Assembly: GCF_016026235.1 (NCBI RefSeq)
Contig: NZ_CP065613.1
From: Escherichia coli
Lineage (GTDB): Bacteria; Pseudomonadota; Gammaproteobacteria; Enterobacterales; Enterobacteriaceae
DNA length: 64,000 bases
Direction: 5' to 3' (one strand)
Part shown: in pieces, positions 21,666-58,237 of the stretch
How the letters are laid out: the number at the start of each line of letters is the position of its first letter
Position numbering within the stretch: the stretch's first letter is position 1
Position numbers and translations under genes: made by a program
Notes under the pieces: generated by a model
Database searches by the model: none
What the model was told of the DNA's origin: nothing
Seen by the model: the letters and a program-made list of their open reading frames with translations, nothing else

Positions 21666-23912
21666 ATGCTCACTCGCCTGCGCGAAATAGTCGAAAAGGT
21701 AGCCAGCGCACCACGCCTGAATGAGGCGTTAAATATTCTGGTTACCGACATCTGTCTTGCGATGGATACCGAGGTCTGTTCGGTCTACCTGGCCGATCAT
21801 GATCGACGTTGTTACTACCTGATGGCGACCCGGGGGCTGAAAAAACCACGCGGTCGCACTGTAACGCTTGCGTTTGATGAAGGGATCGTCGGCCTGGTTG
21901 GCAGGCTGGCGGAACCGATAAACCTTGCAGATGCGCAAAAGCACCCCAGCTTCAAATACATCCCCTCCGTAAAAGAAGAGCGTTTCCGCGCGTTTTTAGG
22001 CGTACCAATTATTCAACGTCGCCAGTTGCTTGGTGTACTGGTGGTACAGCAACGAGAGTTGCGCCAGTATGACGAAAGTGAAGAATCCTTCCTGGTGACG
22101 CTTGCCACCCAGATGGCAGCGATTCTTTCTCAGTCGCAGTTGACTGCCTTGTTTGGGCAATATCGCCAGACGCGAATCCGCGCATTACCGGCAGCACCTG
22201 GTGTGGCGATTGCCGAAGGCTGGCAGGATGCCACGTTACCTTTAATGGAACAGGTGTATCAGGCATCAACGCTGGATCCGGCTCTGGAACGCGAACGACT
22301 GACCGGGGCGCTGGAAGAAGCGGCAAACGAGTTTCGCCGCTACAGCAAACGCTTTGCCGCCGGTGCACAAAAAGAAACGGCGGCTATTTTCGATCTTTAC
22401 TCGCACCTGCTTTCGGACACCCGGCTGCGTCGCGAATTGTTTGCCGAGGTTGATAAAGGCTCGGTGGCAGAGTGGGCGGTAAAAACGGTCATTGAAAAAT
22501 TTGCCGAACAGTTTGCCGCGCTAAGCGATAACTATCTCAAAGAGCGCGCTGGCGATTTACGTGCGCTGGGTCAGCGATTGCTGTTTCATCTTGATGACGC
22601 TAATCAAGGGCCGAACGCCTGGCCGGAACGTTTCATTCTGGTGGCAGATGAACTGTCAGCGACAACTCTTGCTGAGCTGCCCCAGGATCGCTTAGTGGGT
22701 GTTGTCGTGCGAGATGGCGCAGCCAACTCCCATGCTGCGATCATGGTACGTGCGCTGGGGATCCCTACCGTGATGGGCGCGGATATTCAGCCTTCGGTGC
22801 TGCATCGTAGGACGCTGATCGTTGATGGCTATCGCGGTGAATTGCTGGTCGATCCGGAGCCGGTACTGCTGCAAGAATATCAGCGGCTAATTAGTGAAGA
22901 GATTGAGCTTAGCCGTCTGGCGGAAGATGACGTCAATTTACCCGCGCAGTTAAAAAGCGGTGAGCGTATAAAAGTCATGCTCAATGCTGGTTTAAGCCCG
23001 GAACATGAAGAAAAACTGGGCAGCCGTATTGATGGCATCGGTCTTTATCGCACTGAAATCCCATTCATGCTGCAAAGTGGTTTCCCGTCGGAAGAAGAAC
23101 AGGTGGCGCAGTATCAGGGGATGCTGCAAATGTTCAATGATAACCCCGTCACCTTGCGTACGCTGGATGTCGGAGCAGATAAGCAGCTGCCTTACATGCC
23201 GATCAGCGAAGAGAATCCATGCCTGGGTTGGCGTGGGATTCGCATTACGCTCGATCAGCCGGAGATCTTCTTGATCCAGGTGCGGGCGATGCTGCGTGCT
23301 AATGCCGCTACGGGCAACCTGAATATTCTGTTGCCGATGGTCACCAGCCTCGATGAAGTTGATGAAGCACGCCGCCTGATTGAACGTGCCGGACGTGAAG
23401 TCGAGGAGATGATCGGTTACGAAATTCCCAAACCACGTATCGGCATCATGCTGGAAGTGCCGTCAATGGTATTTATGCTGCCGCATCTGGCAAAGCGGGT
23501 CGATTTCATCTCTGTTGGCACCAACGATCTGACTCAATACATTCTGGCCGTTGATCGCAACAATACCCGGGTGGCGAACATTTATGACAGTCTTCATCCT
23601 GCAATGTTACGAGCTCTGGCGATGATCGCCCGGGAAGCGGAAATACATGGTATCGATCTCCGTTTGTGCGGTGAAATGGCGGGCGATCCCATGTGCGTGG
23701 CAATCCTCATTGGGCTTGGGTATCGCCATCTGTCTATGAACGGACGTTCTGTAGCGCGGGTAAAATACCTGCTGCGGCGCATTGATTTTGCCGAAGCAGA
23801 AAATCTTGCGCAGCGTAGTCTGGAAGCGCAACTGGCGACCGAAGTTCGTCATCAGGTTGCAGCCTTTATGGAGCGTCGTGGCATGGGCGGGCTGATTCGC
23901 GGAGGGTTATAG
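21666..23912 (+). CDS. ptsP: Nitrogen-PTS enzyme I (GAF domain + PEP-utilising domains)
   Basis: 748-aa ORF: N-terminal GAF domain and C-terminal enzyme I PEP-utilising domain; follows rppH by 12 bp. Confidence 0.95.
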   Translation: MLTRLREIVEKVASAPRLNEALNILVTDICLAMDTEVCSVYLADHDRRCYYLMATRGLKKPRGRTVTLAFDEGIVGLVGRLAEPINLADAQKHPSFKYIPSVKEERFRAFLGVPIIQRRQLLGVLVVQQRELRQYDESEESFLVTLATQMAAILSQSQLTALFGQYRQTRIRALPAAPGVAIAEGWQDATLPLMEQVYQASTLDPALERERLTGALEEAANEFRRYSKRFAAGAQKETAAIFDLYSHLLSDTRLRRELFAEVDKGSVAEWAVKTVIEKFAEQFAALSDNYLKERAGDLRALGQRLLFHLDDANQGPNAWPERFILVADELSATTLAELPQDRLVGVVVRDGAANSHAAIMVRALGIPTVMGADIQPSVLHRRTLIVDGYRGELLVDPEPVLLQEYQRLISEEIELSRLAEDDVNLPAQLKSGERIKVMLNAGLSPEHEEKLGSRIDGIGLYRTEIPFMLQSGFPSEEEQVAQYQGMLQMFNDNPVTLRTLDVGADKQLPYMPISEENPCLGWRGIRITLDQPEIFLIQVRAMLRANAATGNLNILLPMVTSLDEVDEARRLIERAGREVEEMIGYEIPKPRIGIMLEVPSMVFMLPHLAKRVDFISVGTNDLTQYILAVDRNNTRVANIYDSLHPAMLRALAMIAREAEIHGIDLRLCGEMAGDPMCVAILIGLGYRHLSMNGRSVARVKYLLRRIDFAEAENLAQRSLEAQLATEVRHQVAAFMERRGMGGLIRGGL

Positions 23913-50002: not shown

Positions 50003-50734
50003 TCAGGCTGTTACCAAAGAAGTTGCAACCTGGCGCTCATCAGAAATAATGTGCGTTACCTCATCCAGATGCCCGATGCGGGCTTCCCCTGAACGATTAA
50101 ATTTACTTTTATCAATCAATAACAACGATTGCGCGGCACGTTTTAATAGCATCGATTTGTAATCAGCGTTGATCGCATTGGAGTCCCACAGTGCGCCGCT
50201 GCTATCGATCCCTTCACAAGAAAAAATAAACAGATCGATTTCCAGCGATTTAAGTTGGGAAATCAGCGAGGGATTGACGTAACAGCCATATTTGCGCTCA
50301 AGTGTGCCGCCGGAACTGATCAGTTGAATGCGTTCGCGTTTACCGAGTTCATGGCAAATCGGATGGCTATTGGTGAAGACCTGAATGTTGATGTCAGGCA
50401 ACTGGCGTGCCAGATACCAGCAAGTTGAACTGGCGTCTAAGGCTATCACCATCCCTTCTTCAATCCACGCGAGCGCCTCGCGCGCGATATCTGCTTTATG
50501 CGCATAATGGCTTTTCAGCCTGATGTGAAAGGGAGCGCCACTGTCTTGATTTTGACGGTGGATATATTTAGCGCGTCCATGATTGCGCAGAATTTTACCC
50601 TGCGTCTGTAATTCATTGAGATCGCGACGAATGGTTTCTTTACTGACCTTTAGCTGTTCAGAGAGAGCTTCCGTGGTCAGGCTGGTATGGTTCAGCAGCA
50701 GGTCGACTATCGCTTGCTGGCGTGCCGCTTTCAT
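50003..50734 (-). CDS. fucR: L-fucose operon activator (DeoR family)
   Basis: 243-aa protein from the ATG at 50734 (MKAARQQAIVDLLLNHTSLTTEALSEQLKVSKETIRRDL), HTH plus DeoR C-terminal domain. Confidence 0.9.
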   Translation of the reverse strand: MKAARQQAIVDLLLNHTSLTTEALSEQLKVSKETIRRDLNELQTQGKILRNHGRAKYIHRQNQDSGAPFHIRLKSHYAHKADIAREALAWIEEGMVIALDASSTCWYLARQLPDINIQVFTNSHPICHELGKRERIQLISSGGTLERKYGCYVNPSLISQLKSLEIDLFIFSCEGIDSSGALWDSNAINADYKSMLLKRAAQSLLLIDKSKFNRSGEARIGHLDEVTHIISDERQVATSLVTA

Positions 50735-50791
50735 ATTTTTCACCCCATCATTCGATAACCGCCCGCGTCATGCGGGCGTACCGGTATGAGA

Positions 50792-51215: not shown

Positions 51216-52664
51216 TCACACTTCCTCTATAAATTCAGGTTCAGTTTGCGGGTAGAAATAACGGTACTGATAATGAATCTGTGCGCGGGCTTCTTCCGGG
51301 CTGTTAAATTCCCCTACGCCATACCAACCGAACAGCGCAGCTCCTGCGACGGTCGTTTCGGCGTCGTCGAGAACTTTTACCGGAATATCAAGCATATTGG
51401 CTTTAATCTGATTCCACAATGTGTTGCGACTTCCTCCACCGACTAACAATAATTCAGAGGCCTTAAAGTGCCCGATTTTTTCCAGCATCTGTAGATTGCG
51501 CTGTAATTGCGCAGTTAACCCTTCCAGCGCCGCGCGATAGAAATGCCCCCGCGTGGTATTAAGCGTCACTCCTTGCCAGCCAGCGTTCTGACACGACAAT
51601 AAATCACACTGCATTTTTACGCCATCCGCGCCAGGCGCGATCAGACGAGCTTCTTCAATCAACATTTGCCAGGGTGTTTCAGCCGTCCAGAACAGTTTTC
51701 TCACCCATTCCAGCACGCCGGATGCCAGCCATTGCATACCTGGGTTATACAACCCTGCCTGGCTATCCAGTTCGCAGGTGGAACCGGCGTACTGACTTAA
51801 CAGCGAAGTATCAACCTGGGCGCTACGGACCATTAAAATTTCCCATGTACCGGAAGAGAGCACGGGTTCATTTTGGTCGGCACCAGCGCCAAAAAGGGCG
51901 AACTGGGTATCGTGACCTGCGGAAATCACCGGTATGCCAACGGGTAAGCCGAGCATTGCTGCGGCGCTGTTCTGTAGCGTACCAATCTGTTCACCCGCTT
52001 CCACCAGACGAGGGAAGAGTCGGCGTGGAATACCGGTGGCTTGTAAAATTTGCGGACTGAAATCGCGTTGCTGGATATCCAGCATCTGGCTGGTTCCGGC
52101 CATCGTGATATCAGTAGTGAATTCGCCGGTTAAACGGTGGTTAATCAGCGACGAAATAAAGAGCCAGGCGTGCGCGCGTTCCAGCAGTTGTGGATGATTT
52201 TCTTTCAACCACACCAACTTATATAACGTATTGAAACTAAAGGCTCCGACGCCAGAAATAGCCTGCAACCGCTGTGCGGAGATCAACTGTTCAATATTGT
52301 CCATAACCGCTGCTGTTCGCGGACATTTCCAGCTAATGATCGGATAGAGCAGATTGCCTTGCTTATCTACCAGAGCGCCATCCACACCAAAGGTGGTGAC
52401 GGCGATACCGCGGATGTGGCATTCAGTCAGTTCACTATTGATTTGCCGACAGCAATCAGCAAAGCGTTGCAAAATGGCGTCTAAAGACCACTGGTGCCAG
52501 GTGTTGTTTTCCATCGCGATATCGCTGGCATTAGGCGTTGAGGCGCGGGCAACAATTTTTCCCTGCCGATTAACCGCGATGGCCCTGACATTGGTCGCGC
52601 CACAGTCGAGTACCAGGATAACTTCTTGTTTCATAATCGCTCCTGCAATATAGCCGGATAACAT
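51216..52664 (-). CDS. fucK: L-fuculokinase
   Basis: FGGY-family kinase ORF. The longest form is 482 aa; an internal ATG at 52634 has a strong AGGAG Shine-Dalgarno (472-aa form, [17 protein letters not shown]...) and may be the true start. Confidence 0.9.
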
Positions 52665-54550: not shown

Positions 54551-55867
54551 TCAGTTAGTTGCCGTTTGAGAACGGAAACGGGCAAAGATAAAGATGACCG
54601 CGAAGCAGAGTGCGGGGATCAGTTCAGCAGTGGGGATGTTGCCCGCCGCGTCACTGACAAAACCCATGACCGGAGTGACAATACCGCCGCCAATGATGGT
54701 CATAACGATGAAGGACGAACCGTATTTGGTGTCCTGGCCGAGATTCTTAATGCCCAGCGAGAAGATTGTTGGGTACTGAATCGACATAAAGGCGCTGCAT
54801 AAAGTCAGGGCTATTAAGCCCACATGACCGCCAGCGAAGGCTGAGATCAGGCACAGTGCCATAGCGATTAATGCGTAGGCGGCCAGGACTTTGTGTGGTG
54901 CGAAGCGACTGATGAGCCAGGTACCGGTGAAACGACCAATAAAGAAGCACACCATGGTTCCGGTTAAATAGTTAGCGGCAAAGCCTGCAGTCATACCTGG
55001 AATTTCTTCTACAGCGTAGCGAATCAAATAGCTCCAGCAGGCCGTTTGTGCGCCAACGTAGCAGAATTGCGCTAATACTGCCCAGCGCCAGTGGCGAATA
55101 CGCGCCAGGCGAGAAAGCGATGCGGAGAACGATCCTTGTTTGGCGTCACTGTGATTATCACTCTGCAATGCCGGGAATTTCGTCAGCATGATCAGCAGGG
55201 CGACCAGTAACACGATAGCCACGATGATCATATAAGGTGTCTGTACCGATAATACCAGGCTGTGTTTATACGCACTCAATTGCTCTGGAGACATTTTATC
55301 GAGAACGTCTTGCGATTGATGTGGCACGTTAGACAAAATAAGACTTTGCCCAAAGACAACCGCGATAATTGCGCCAAACGAGTTAAATGTTTGCGCAAGA
55401 TTTAAGCGGAAGTGACCACTGCTTTCCGGCCCTAATACCGTAACAAAAGGGTTTGCGGCAGTTTCCAGACAACCTAATCCGGCTGCAATAATAAATAGGC
55501 CAACTAAAAATAAGGTGTAGTTCATTATTTCTGCAGCGGGCCAGAATAATGCAGCGCCCAAGGCATATAAAAATAATCCGGTAATAATCCCTGCTTTATA
55601 ACTGAGTTTTTTCATCAATATCCCAGCAGGGATTGGGATAATGAAATAACCAAAGTAAAAGGCCGATTGGATCAGGCCAGCCTGGAAATTTGTCAGCGTA
55701 AAAGCCTGCTGGAATTGAGGTAATAAAATGTCGTTAAGGTTATTGGCTACCGCCCAAAGAAAAAACAGTGAGCACAGCAGCGCGAATGGAATAATGTAAC
55801 TTCTGCTTTGCCCTGCATCTTTATCTACCGCACGGTAACTCTGCGTTTGTATTGATGTGTTTCCCAT
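54551..55867 (-). CDS. fucP: L-fucose:H+ symporter (MFS)
   Basis: 438-aa 12-TM ORF; first gene of the fucPIKUR operon. Confidence 0.95.
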   Translation of the reverse strand: MGNTSIQTQSYRAVDKDAGQSRSYIIPFALLCSLFFLWAVANNLNDILLPQFQQAFTLTNFQAGLIQSAFYFGYFIIPIPAGILMKKLSYKAGIITGLFLYALGAALFWPAAEIMNYTLFLVGLFIIAAGLGCLETAANPFVTVLGPESSGHFRLNLAQTFNSFGAIIAVVFGQSLILSNVPHQSQDVLDKMSPEQLSAYKHSLVLSVQTPYMIIVAIVLLVALLIMLTKFPALQSDNHSDAKQGSFSASLSRLARIRHWRWAVLAQFCYVGAQTACWSYLIRYAVEEIPGMTAGFAANYLTGTMVCFFIGRFTGTWLISRFAPHKVLAAYALIAMALCLISAFAGGHVGLIALTLCSAFMSIQYPTIFSLGIKNLGQDTKYGSSFIVMTIIGGGIVTPVMGFVSDAAGNIPTAELIPALCFAVIFIFARFRSQTATN

Positions 55868-56045
55868 AGCATCCTCTTAGGTTCAGAAGCTTAAGCACGT
55901 AATCGGTTATGTTTTCAAAAGTGCAAAACCAGCGAGTTCGGGCTTCATATCAGTGAATATTTGCCTGTCTGAAATGAACTCATGGATTCATTTTCAAATA
56001 AAAAACGCTCTGTAATATGACGGCGGTCACACTTATTAGCTGGAA

Positions 56046-56061
56046 GGTGACTTTATGTGAC
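56046..56061. promoter_or_regulatory. Candidate CRP site in the fucP/fucA divergent control region
   Basis: TGTGACTACCATCACT matches the TGTGA-N6-TCACA pattern with one mismatch. Confidence 0.4.
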
Positions 56062-56413
56062 TACCATCACTTTAATAATCGAAATTTCATGCCCGTTTCA
56101 GAAAATAAATCATAAAAAACACAAACCAGATGACCGTATTAATTGTTTATGCCGAAAACGGGCATTCCTGGCTTGAGTGAATAGAAAAATGACCGTTTTG
56201 ATAAATATTTTTAAGAGCGGTCATTTTTAATGGGGTTATAAAAAGAGAACTTGCAGTTATTTACTGTGATTAGTTGAACCAGGTCACAAAATATAAGCTT
56301 GTGAATTTCTTTCTGGTTAATCAGGAAGAAGATGGTGGGTAATTAAACGGCTAATTCAATAGTGTGAAAGGAACAACATTATTGCCCTGTTTTGAATCAG
56401 AGAGAGGTAGCTA

Positions 56414-57061
56414 ATGGAACGAAATAAACTTGCTCGTCAGATTATTGACACTTGCCTGGAAATGACCCGCCTGGGACTGAACCAGGGGACAGCGGGGAAC
56501 GTCAGTGTACGTTATCAGGATGGGATGCTGATTACGCCTACAGGCATTCCATATGAAAAACTGACGGAGTCGCATATTGTCTTTATTGATGGCAACGGTA
56601 AACATGAGGAAGGAAAGCTCCCCTCAAGCGAATGGCGTTTCCATATGGCGGCCTATCAAAGCAGACCGGATGCCAACGCGGTTGTTCACAATCATGCCGT
56701 TCATTGCACGGCAGTTTCCATTCTTAACCGATCGATCCCCGCTATTCACTACATGATTGCGGCGGCTGGCGGTAATTCTATTCCTTGCGCGCCTTATGCG
56801 ACCTTTGGAACACGTGAACTTTCTGAACATGTTGCGCAGGCTCTCAAAAATCGTAAGGCAACTTTGTTACAACATCATGGGCTTATCGCTTGTGAGGTGA
56901 ATCTGGAAAAAGCGTTATGGCTGGCGCATGAAGTTGAAGTGCTGGCGCAACTTTACCTGACGACCCTGGCGATTACGGACCCGGTGCCAGTGCTGAGCGA
57001 TGAAGAGATTGCCGTAGTGCTGGAGAAATTCAAAACCTATGGGTTACGAATTGAAGAGTAA
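56414..57061 (+). CDS. fucA: L-fuculose-phosphate aldolase (class II)
   Basis: 215-aa ORF MERNKLARQIIDTCLEMTRLGLNQGTAGNVSVRY... Confidence 0.95.
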   Translation: MERNKLARQIIDTCLEMTRLGLNQGTAGNVSVRYQDGMLITPTGIPYEKLTESHIVFIDGNGKHEEGKLPSSEWRFHMAAYQSRPDANAVVHNHAVHCTAVSILNRSIPAIHYMIAAAGGNSIPCAPYATFGTRELSEHVAQALKNRKATLLQHHGLIACEVNLEKALWLAHEVEVLAQLYLTTLAITDPVPVLSDEEIAVVLEKFKTYGLRIEE

Positions 57062-57085: not shown

Positions 57086-58237
57086 ATGATGGCTAACAGA
57101 ATGATTCTGAACGAAACGGCATGGTTTGGTCGGGGTGCTGTTGGGGCTTTAACCGATGAGGTGAAACGCCGTGGTTATCAGAAGGCGCTGATCGTCACCG
57201 ATAAAACGCTGGTGCAATGCGGCGTGGTGGCGAAAGTGACCGATAAGATGGATGCTGCAGGGCTGGCATGGGCGATTTACGACGGCGTAGTGCCCAACCC
57301 AACAATTACTGTCGTCAAAGAAGGGCTCGGTGTATTCCAGAATAGCGGCGCGGATTACCTGATCGCTATTGGTGGTGGTTCTCCACAGGATACTTGTAAA
57401 GCGATTGGCATTATCAGCAACAACCCGGAGTTTGCCGATGTGCGTAGCCTGGAAGGACTTTCCCCGACCAATAAACCCAGTGTACCGATTCTGGCAATCC
57501 CCACCACAGCAGGCACTGCGGCAGAAGTGACCATTAACTACGTGATCACTGACGAAGAAAAACGGCGCAAGTTTGTTTGCGTTGATCCGCATGATATCCC
57601 GCAGGTGGCGTTTATTGACGCTGACATGATGGATGGTATGCCTCCAGCGCTGAAAGCTGCGACGGGTGTCGATGCGCTCACTCATGCTATTGAGGGGTAT
57701 ATTACCCGTGGCGCGTGGGCGCTAACCGATGCACTGCACATTAAAGCGATTGAAATCATTGCTGGGGCGCTGCGAGGATCGGTTGCTGGTGATAAGGATG
57801 CCGGAGAAGAAATGGCGCTCGGGCAGTATGTTGCGGGTATGGGCTTCTCGAATGTTGGGTTAGGGTTGGTGCATGGTATGGCGCATCCACTGGGCGCGTT
57901 TTATAACACTCCACACGGTGTTGCAAACGCCATCCTGCTACCGCATGTCATGCGCTATAACGCTGACTTTACCGGTGAGAAGTACCGCGATATCGCGCGC
58001 GTTATGGGCGTGAAAGTGGAAGGTATGAGCCTGGAAGAGGCGCGTAATGCCGCTGTTGAAGCGGTGTTTGCTCTCAACCGTGATGTCGGTATTCCGCCAC
58101 ATTTGCGTGATGTTGGGGTACGCAAGGAAGACATTCCGGCACTGGCGCAGGCGGCACTGAATGATGTTTGTACCGGTGGCAACCCGCGTGAAGCAACGCT
58201 TGAGGATATTGTAGAGCTTTACCATACCGCCTGGTAA
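57086..58237 (+). CDS. fucO: L-1,2-propanediol oxidoreductase (iron-containing alcohol dehydrogenase)
   Basis: 383-aa ORF (possible start one codon later at 57089), Fe-ADH family. Confidence 0.95.
   Translation: MMANRMILNETAWFGRGAVGALTDEVKRRGYQKALIVTDKTLVQCGVVAKVTDKMDAAGLAWAIYDGVVPNPTITVVKEGLGVFQNSGADYLIAIGGGSPQDTCKAIGIISNNPEFADVRSLEGLSPTNKPSVPILAIPTTAGTAAEVTINYVITDEEKRRKFVCVDPHDIPQVAFIDADMMDGMPPALKAATGVDALTHAIEGYITRGAWALTDALHIKAIEIIAGALRGSVAGDKDAGEEMALGQYVAGMGFSNVGLGLVHGMAHPLGAFYNTPHGVANAILLPHVMRYNADFTGEKYRDIARVMGVKVEGMSLEEARNAAVEAVFALNRDVGIPPHLRDVGVRKEDIPALAQAALNDVCTGGNPREATLEDIVELYHTAW

Follow-up and report, generated by a model that had tools for sequence, protein, structure and literature searches.

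The 546-bp spacer between fucP and fucA in the stretch of Escherichia coli DNA analysed here (64,000 nucleotides, referred to as the window) carries five copies of a single motif, designated FucR boxes B1-B5, together with a set of CRP sites. We put at about 85% the probability that these boxes and CRP sites control both of the divergent promoters, that of fucPIKUR and that of fucAO. The boxes would be read by the DeoR-family activator FucR carrying fuculose-1-phosphate and would act interleaved with the cAMP-CRP sites. The reading of this region as an array of FucR and CRP operators is correct and is already in the literature: two of the boxes and all four CRP sites have been published, and two more FucR operators have been listed as putative. 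What is added here is incremental and consists of the five-box map, the recognition of B4 as a perfect consensus site, a fixed pair geometry with a variable linker, an isolated natural fucA module in Serratia sp. DD3, and a conserved element, X. No earlier account describes the paired layout of the boxes or its conservation.

According to the open reading frame map of the window, the spacer occupies positions 55868-56413, in agreement with the length given in a first-pass annotation of this DNA. It is bounded by fucP on one side and by fucA on the other; fucO lies downstream of fucA, and fucI, fucK, fucU and fucR come after fucP in the cluster, with fucR as the last gene of fucPIKUR (Table 1). 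Matches at 95-100% identity that cover 80% or more of the spacer were present in 5,012 of 5,426 complete E. coli genomes. The window strain is E. coli but not K-12. The spacer is 546 bp long in both this strain and K-12 MG1655, with 537 of the 546 positions identical and nine that differ; the core of B3 is CGGGCAT in the window as compared with CGGTCAT in K-12, and the IS5 target CTAG of K-12 is CTGG in the window.

Table 1. Genes, FucR boxes, CRP sites and promoter elements of the fuc region in the window
Feature	Position	Strand	Description
fucR	50003-50743	minus	DeoR-family activator reading the FucR boxes (Pfam HTH_DeoR 6.8e-23, DeoRC 1.7e-45)
fucP	54551-55867	minus	Bounds the spacer on one side
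Candidate fucPIKUR core promoter block	55972-56005	minus	-10 and start; column identity 0.90 in 22 genera or species
OCrp0	56016-56031		CRP site of the fucPIK promoter; TATGAcggcggTCACA; 1 mismatch to TGTGA-N6-TCACA; column identity 0.91
OCrp1	56056-56071		Second fucPIK CRP site; TGTGActaccaTCACT; 1 mismatch; column identity 0.89
FucR box B1	56089-56098	plus	ATGCCCGTTT; 13 bits; column identity 0.93
Element X	56112-56123		TAAAAAACACAA; AAAAcCCACAG in most genera; column identity 0.85
FucR box B2	56130-56139	plus	ATGACCGTAT; 17 bits; 1 mismatch to published consensus
FucR box B3	56156-56165	minus	OFucR2 (56152-56166); AAACGGGCAT on plus strand; 17 bits; 1 mismatch; column identity 0.96
FucR box B4	56189-56198	plus	ATGACCGTTT, preceded by AAAA at 56185-56188; 21 bits, the best box
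FucR box B5	56215-56224	minus	OFucR3 (56211-56225); GAGCGGTCAT on plus strand; 15 bits
OCrp2	56273-56288		CRP site essential for fucAO; GTTGAaccaggTCACA; 2 mismatches to TGTGA-N6-TCACA
fucAO promoter	56341-56351	plus	-10 AATTAA at 56341-56346; transcription start C at 56351
OCrp3	56360-56381		Published minor fucAO site
fucA	56414-57061	plus	Bounds the spacer on the other side
fucO	57086-58237	plus	Downstream of fucA

The first-pass annotation had singled out the span 56040-56235 for its inverted repeats. All of these repeats are present within that span, but their true positions are 9-10 bp higher than the internal coordinates assigned to them. For the perfect inverted repeat of 11 bp, which had been placed at 56176-56218 with a spacer of 21 nt, the arms are AAAAATGACCG (56185-56195) and CGGTCATTTTT (56218-56228) and the spacer is 22 nt, and the third copy of ATGACCGT is found at 56130-56137 instead of 56120-56127. 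The second inverted repeat is also real but is exact over 10 bp, not 11; its arms are ATGCCCGTTT (56089-56098) and AAACGGGCAT (56156-56165) with 57 nt in between, and the letters of the right arm are GAAAACGGGCAT where GAAACGGGCAT had been claimed. The two inverted repeats had been treated as distinct elements. They are the same element, because all of the arms share one motif when they are written in a common orientation (B1, TTCATGCCCGTTTCAG; B2, CAGATGACCGTATTAA; B3, GGAATGCCCGTTTTCG; B4, AAAATGACCGTTTTGA; B5, AAAATGACCGCTCTTA). This motif, aaaaTGMCCGTTT, is non-palindromic, is present in five copies and accounts for every repeat arm; the copies differ at its degenerate A/C position. B4 and B5 are the left and right arms of the perfect inverted repeat, B1 and B3 are the left and right arms of the second, and B2 is the copy that had been counted as the third.

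A weight matrix trained solely on non-Escherichia spacers (consensus aaaaTGMCCGTTTt; matches accepted at 11 bits or more) gives five matches of 13-21 bits within 142 bp of the spacer, as compared with nine in the remaining 63.8 kb, all of which are isolated. Among the latter, the matches at 22480-22495, inside a ptsP-like coding sequence, and at 51465-51480, inside the fucK coding sequence, were taken as chance occurrences. All five arms also fit the FucR consensus that Baumgart et al. (2021) obtained by assaying genomic binding in vitro, in the form quoted by Zhang et al. (2024; PMC11011485), [GA][CT][CG][AC][AG][ATC][AT]CGG[TG]CA[TA][TCG] or RYSMRHWCGGKCAWB; they sit between the fuc genes, and fucR is in the same cluster. 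On the minus strand B4 reads ATCAAAACGGTCATT and has no mismatches to this 15-nt consensus, which is matched perfectly at only two places in the 64-kb window. B2 and B3 agree with it at 14 of 15 positions, and B1 and B5 have three mismatches each (about 12 of 15, counted by hand), all of them outside an intact CGG-CA core.

The specificity of the published consensus is limited, as the window has 17 sites that match it with no more than one mismatch when 10.8 are expected, and ATGACCG by itself is not rare (17 matches, 8.5 expected). Both figures would suit the view that the repeats arose by chance in intergenic DNA that is rich in AT. That view carries practically no weight and has already been refuted by the conserved positions and spacings described below and by the published mutagenesis of two of the boxes. 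It is also at odds with the clustering of the five matrix matches and with an average of 5.26 matrix matches per spacer in 47 spacers (46 besides that of the window) versus 0.16 in shuffled sequences. Longer repeat units are scarce by chance: ATGCCCGTTT occurs twice in the 64-kb window, both times in the spacer, versus 0.10 occurrences expected, and only 1% of spacer shuffles contain a perfect inverted repeat at least 11 bp long.

The same spacer was studied in K-12 by Zhang et al. (2024; PMC11011485), and the window contains the OFucR2, OFucR3 and OCrp0-OCrp3 sites, the -10 element and the start site of the K-12 locus (PMC11011485, PMC11894529). OFucR2, CCGAAAACGGTCATT, corresponds to 56152-56166 and thus to B3, with G for T at one position; OFucR3, TTAAGAGCGGTCATT, corresponds to 56211-56225 and to B5. 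According to PMC11011485, the in vitro binding study had proposed OFucR2 only. In K-12, mutation of OFucR2 reduces fucose-induced PfucAO activity by about 30%, and mutation of OFucR3 reduces it more than 50-fold (PMC11011485). The requirement for B3 and B5 in the induction of fucAO by FucR has already been demonstrated by others, as has the essential role of OCrp2. Truncations in the same study are informative about the remaining boxes: with the end point at -270 (starting at 56144, without B1 and B2) PfucAO is fully active, so B1 and B2 are dispensable for this promoter; at -206 (starting at 56208, without B3 and B4) about 70% of the induced activity is retained; and at -166 (without B5) the promoter is nearly dead (PMC11011485).

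B5 and B4 lie at approximately -130 and -159 from the fucA start. No other box in the region fits the consensus as well as B4, and therefore the best match is not among the two validated sites; B4 is absent from the sites named in PMC11011485, a paper in which inverted repeats, palindromes and oligomers are not mentioned. A second report, Zhang et al. (2025; PMC11894529), refers to four FucR operators, OR0-OR3, of which OR0 and OR1 are described as "putative" for fucPIKR in a text that gives no sequences. The K-12 papers thus have two validated and two putative FucR operators and speak of neither inverted repeats nor pairs, whereas five conserved boxes with a fixed pair geometry are found here. 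A search of the accessible papers found no FucR footprint on any of the boxes and, beyond these two papers from the Saier laboratory, no other work on enterobacterial FucR operators. The proposal in the first-pass annotation that the repeats are candidate FucR and CRP operators is upheld by the published consensus, the K-12 mutagenesis and the conservation of the sites.

The CRP-like site that had been noted in the span 56040-56235, TGTGACTACCATCACT at 56056-56071, is confirmed as the known OCrp1 and is the only good CRP match inside that span. Another match, TATGACGGCGGTCACA at 56016-56031, is just outside it, as are OCrp2 and the minor OCrp3. OCrp0 and OCrp1 are assigned to fucPIK in the K-12 papers (PMC11011485, PMC11894529), which give two landmarks: an inserted T at -146 relative to the fucP start that lies "immediately downstream of OCrp0", and a target for IS5 at -374 to -371 relative to fucA that lies "between OCrp0 and OCrp1". 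These positions are equivalent to 56013 and 56040-56043, respectively, and support the mapping of OCrp0 to 56016-56031 and of OCrp1 to 56056-56071. They are two of only four CRP matches with one mismatch or fewer in the 64-kb window. Toward fucP, OCrp0 is closely followed by a block (55972-56005) that most likely holds the fucPIKUR core promoter, to judge from its conservation and position. Class II CRP geometry would place the fucP start near 55982; OCrp0 and OCrp1 would then be centred at -41.5 and -81.5, positions that are as provisional as the predicted start itself.

On the fucA side, the transcription start mapped in K-12 by 5'RACE is a C located 63 nt upstream of the ATG (PMC11011485), equivalent to 56351, and the stretch 56341-56351 is identical in K-12 and the window. 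OCrp2, published as the 22-mer ttagtTGAaccaggTCACAaaa (56270-56291), gives a 14- to 350-fold loss of activity when it is mutated (PMC11011485). It is centred at -70.5 relative to the published fucA start, a class I-like position, and all 22 sequences compared have the same TCACA half. OCrp3 contributes about 30% of the activity (PMC11011485) and may in fact be a hairpin in the 5'UTR, with 56357-56365 and 56376-56384 as its stem. A scan of 55800-56480 with promoter and terminator consensus sequences gave no matches, a result that fits activator-dependent promoters but is uninformative.

Conservation was examined with FucA as the query and one genome per bacterial species, which gave 80 loci. 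In 46 of these a closely related fucP is adjacent and divergent, and in the other 34 it is not; the genera represented among the 46 are Escherichia, Salmonella, Citrobacter, Klebsiella, Raoultella, Kluyvera, Enterobacter, Yokenella, Kosakonia, Mangrovibacter, Hafnia, Buttiauxella, Rahnella, Yersinia and Photorhabdus. Phylogenetic footprinting of the fucP-fucA spacer, which the first-pass annotation had suggested as a check, showed all of the boxes and CRP sites to be conserved. In a 22-sequence alignment with a mean column identity of 66%, the boxes have column identities of 0.81-0.96 as compared with 0.49-0.72 for the linkers, and the CRP cores have values of 0.80-0.91. The five boxes and three CRP sites (OCrp0, OCrp1 and OCrp2) are conserved across Enterobacterales, with positions and spacings that are kept from Escherichia to Yersinia and Edwardsiella. 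In Edwardsiella the five boxes and two CRP sites are the same, although the fucP-like gene is distant and further upstream.

The order and orientation of the boxes, > > < > <, is the same in 38 of the 47 spacers, and the distances between box centres fall into two classes. B1 and B2 are 41 bp apart in 28 genomes and 42 bp apart in nine (37 of 38 spacers), B2 and B3 are 29 bp apart in 37 of 38, and B4 and B5 are 29 bp apart in 29 genomes and 30 bp apart in nine (38 of 38). The B3-B4 distance, by comparison, ranges from 23 to 52 bp in the 38 spacers and has no preferred phase. The CRP sites are held at regular distances from their neighbours: the centres of OCrp1 and B1 are 28.5 bp apart in all genera checked, OCrp0 and OCrp1 are separated by 39-40 bp in nearly all genomes, and the centres of B5 and OCrp2 are 58.5-59.5 bp apart across genera. 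Since B3-B4 alone drifts in length, the spacer behaves as two rigid blocks.

An alternative is that the repeats function as nucleic acid structure, as an RNA hairpin or terminator or as a cruciform or duplex-destabilized site that attracts IS5, rather than as protein operators. The B4/B5 repeat does give a single-strand fold of -10 kcal/mol (z = -6.25), and the region, which is AT-rich, is known as a hot spot for IS5 (PMC11894529). That fold is good because of the repeat itself, however, and adds no independent evidence, and neither B1/B3 (z = -1.9) nor B2/B3 (z = -1.4) folds significantly. The repeats are upstream of both transcription starts and are therefore in neither mRNA, there is no terminator-like site in 55800-56480, no Rfam family is matched at threshold, and the IS5 target at 56040-56043 is about 50 bp from the repeats. 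A hit to Rfam tsr25 at a permissive E-value was rejected as chance (20.7 bits, where the gathering score is 63). In a comparison of 37 genomes, the arms show no covariation beyond that expected from independent conservation of the motif: the same letter is present at the A/C position of B4 and B5 in 16 genomes (12.0 expected if independent), of B2 and B3 in 20 (18.4 expected) and of B1 and B3 in 21 (18.3 expected). This absence of covariation points to protein recognition of each box and not to base pairing between arms, and a structural role for the repeats is judged very improbable.

With the boxes taken as FucR sites, the fixed spacings suggest how they may be organized. FucR would work through units of two boxes, B2/B3 and B4/B5, that are inverted tail to tail with 29 bp between their centres, each unit presumably bound by a dimer or tetramer of FucR. 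As inverted half-sites at a fixed distance, both pairs fit a palindromic operator with two half-sites. The second inverted repeat had been described as a pairing of B1 with B3, which is probably wrong; most likely B3 pairs with B2, as the B2/B3 arrangement repeats the 29-bp geometry of B4/B5. The B1/B3 pair was set aside as the less likely one on this ground, and in K-12 the match between B1 and B3 falls to 9 of 10; the 70-bp distance between them is conserved only because the B1-B2 and B2-B3 distances are each conserved. The 29-bp spacing is equivalent to about 2.8 helical turns, which counts against the pair model in that a simple dimer would have no obvious same-face geometry.

The proposed layout, with distances in bp and arrowheads for box orientation, is PfucP <- OCrp0 -40- OCrp1 -28.5- B1> -41- B2> -29- <B3 -[variable 23-52]- B4> -29- <B5 -59- OCrp2 -> PfucA. 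It would comprise two rigid modules, each with a FucR pair and CRP sites, that are joined by a length-tolerant B3-B4 linker: a fucP module with OCrp0, OCrp1, B1, B2 and B3, and a fucA module with B4, B5 and OCrp2. Read toward its own promoter, each module would present an inverted pair at 29 bp followed by a CRP site, with B1 as an extra box between the pair and the CRP site in the fucP module. The promoter-proximal box of the pair would be on the same helical face relative to CRP in both modules, since its distance from the CRP site in the fucP module (69.5 bp) exceeds that in the fucA module (59 bp) by one helical turn. From the proximal box, bound FucR would aid CRP and RNA polymerase at promoters that are weak and of the class I or class II CRP type.

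Three groups of genomes lend support to the two-module reading. In Serratia sp. DD3, fucA-fucO follows co-directional genes for periplasmic binding proteins and there is no divergent fucP. Its upstream region has a single inverted pair, ATGCCCGTTT-N19-AAACGGGCAT, with centres 29 bp apart, and an OCrp2-like sequence, ATTGAgctttgTCACA, 57.5 bp further downstream; neither boxes B1-B3 nor OCrp0 or OCrp1 are found in this fucAO upstream region. In Photorhabdus and Mangrovibacter B4 is strong and keeps its conserved distance of 87.5 bp from OCrp2, and B5 is decayed to ACGGAATA in Photorhabdus and to ACCAACAT in Mangrovibacter. Finally, at 26 of the 34 loci with a fucA homologue but without a close, adjacent and divergent fucP, no box is present within 900 bp upstream.

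A different interpretation is that each box is a FucR site in its own right and that orientation decides which promoter it serves, those with CGGKCAT directed toward fucA (B3 and B5) serving fucAO and those directed toward fucP (B1, B2 and B4) serving fucPIK, and that the inverted repeats are a by-product of two interleaved direct arrays and do nothing as pairs. The K-12 data are compatible with such sorting, as the two boxes validated for fucAO share one orientation, the construct without B4 is still about 70% active and the one without B1 and B2 is fully active. It is harder to reconcile with the comparative data: the 29-bp spacing within pairs is near-invariant while B3-B4 drifts over 23-52 bp, fucAO of Serratia sp. 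DD3 retains a B4-type as well as a B5-type box even though it has no divergent fucP, and Photorhabdus and Mangrovibacter hold B4 in place with respect to OCrp2 while B5 decays. We consider sorting by orientation doubtful and slightly favour the combination of inverted pairs and modules. The stronger formulation, in which FucR would act through 36-bp composite operators made up of two tail-to-tail boxes and not through isolated 15-bp sites, and in which the modules would be separable in evolution, is in our estimation evenly balanced between being right and being wrong.

The retention of about 70% of activity by the -206 truncation means that B5 nearly suffices alone in E. coli and that the pair is not obligatory there. 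This result holds for a reporter at high native levels of FucR with the regulon induced. Cooperative help from B4 may matter only when FucR is low. If the composite-operator reading is true, B4 would be the partner of the essential OFucR3, and OFucR2 (B3), as the partner of B2, would be a structural part of the fucP module.

Arrays of this general type are known from other sugar regulons. In the E. coli malEp-malKp region, divergent sugar promoters have several MalT sites interleaved with several CRP sites. The two regions appear analogous in that an array of activator sites and CRP sites is common to two divergent promoters. They differ in the type of activator, which is of the LuxR/STAND type for MalT and of the DeoR type for FucR, and in motifs and spacings; furthermore, malEp-malKp forms one obligatory joint complex, whereas the comparative data for fuc suggest two separable modules. 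Among regulators related to FucR, the O1, O2 and OE operators of DeoR and the tandem operators of GlpR are several short copies of a site recognized by an oligomeric DeoR-type regulator with a sugar-phosphate effector. DeoR and GlpR are repressors that bind near or over promoters, whereas FucR is an activator that is far upstream and works with CRP, and the FucR half-sites are 29 bp apart and not adjacent.

The fuc locus, a textbook example of a catabolic regulon, also serves as a model for "directed" activation mediated by IS5, and for this reason mistakes in its operator map carry over into IS5 studies. The five-box map and the module reading leave the general picture of the fuc regulon unchanged. 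The analysis introduces three cautions, that B4 has been overlooked, that OFucR2 may belong to the fucP module and that OCrp3 may be a 5'UTR hairpin, and the comparative map offers a testable account of how one DeoR-type activator could serve two divergent promoters.

Element X is 29 bp from B1, the position expected for an inverted partner box. As a FucR box it has a negative matrix score except in Photorhabdus, which has a true box at this position; if the composite-operator reading is true, element X may be the decayed partner of B1.

The conserved stem-loop in the fucA leader begins 6 nt past the transcription start, and its arms overlap OCrp3, one of the CRP sites published for this region. 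In E. coli the stem is formed by CAATAGTGT...ACATTATTG; in the other genera it has the form CAACAG...CTGTTG, and the inner part varies. RNAalifold predicts nine base pairs for the leader, three of which carry compensatory changes. When OCrp3 is scored as a CRP site in the cross-genus comparison of spacers, it is present in Escherichia only. Mutation of OCrp3 was reported to have a 30% effect on fucAO (PMC11011485). Because the published mutation changes both arms of the stem, this effect could arise at the RNA level rather than from lost CRP binding.

The −35 assignment of PfucAO also looks unsettled. It was published as "TTGtgA at −96 to −91", counted from the fucA ATG (PMC11011485), but the published coordinates and the promoter sequence do not agree: TAATCA occupies −96 to −91, whereas TTGTGA lies at −115 to −110 (56299-304), 36 bp from the proposed −10.

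Coordinates of the features discussed. Bits are scores on the FucR weight matrix trained on non-Escherichia spacers.
Feature	Position	Strand	Remarks
Stem-loop arms, fucA 5'UTR	56357-56365 and 56376-56384		Overlaps published OCrp3 (56360-81)
Region of published −35 and TTGTGA	56299-56323		
Element X	56112-56123		TAAAAAACACAA; column identity 0.85
SrsR gSELEX box	55924-55934		Reverse complement of GCAAAACCAGC
Isolated strong FucR-box match	22480-22495	(-)	19.3 bits; inside GAF/PEP-utilising (ptsP-like) gene
Isolated strong FucR-box match	51465-51480	(+)	16.1 bits; inside fucK
fucA upstream region, Serratia sp. DD3	L059:2310-2407		One FucR inverted pair and OCrp2-like site

Element X is conserved, reading AAAAcCCACAG in most genera, and is exactly 29 bp from the FucR box B1, the place expected for an inverted partner box. 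By score it is no FucR box; in Photorhabdus a true FucR box, AATTCGGTCAT, occupies the same position. Element X may be a half-site that has decayed, or else another factor may bind there. The SrsR box gCtGgTTTTGC reported in the fuc spacer from gSELEX (PMC9181523) is in the fucP leader, outside the array of FucR and CRP sites.

In Serratia sp. DD3, fucA-fucO lies downstream of periplasmic-binding-protein genes without a divergent fucP, and its upstream region has just one FucR inverted pair together with the OCrp2-like site. This locus is a natural, isolated form of the proposed fucA module (the B4/B5 pair plus OCrp2). The two isolated matches within coding sequence in the window are probably due to chance.

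The window strain differs from K-12 at the IS5 target (56040-56043), which is CTGG instead of the CTAG used in K-12 propanediol-positive mutants (PMC11894529); IS5-mediated activation of fucAO might be weaker in this lineage. The validated FucR operator B3 is also polymorphic, with CGGGCAT in the window and CGGTCAT in K-12; at the variable position, 56162, G and T are both common across genera. The fucP-fucA spacer finds no match in about 400 of the 5,426 complete E. coli genomes and is matched only in part in 12, so a minority of strains either lack the fuc control region or carry it in disrupted form.
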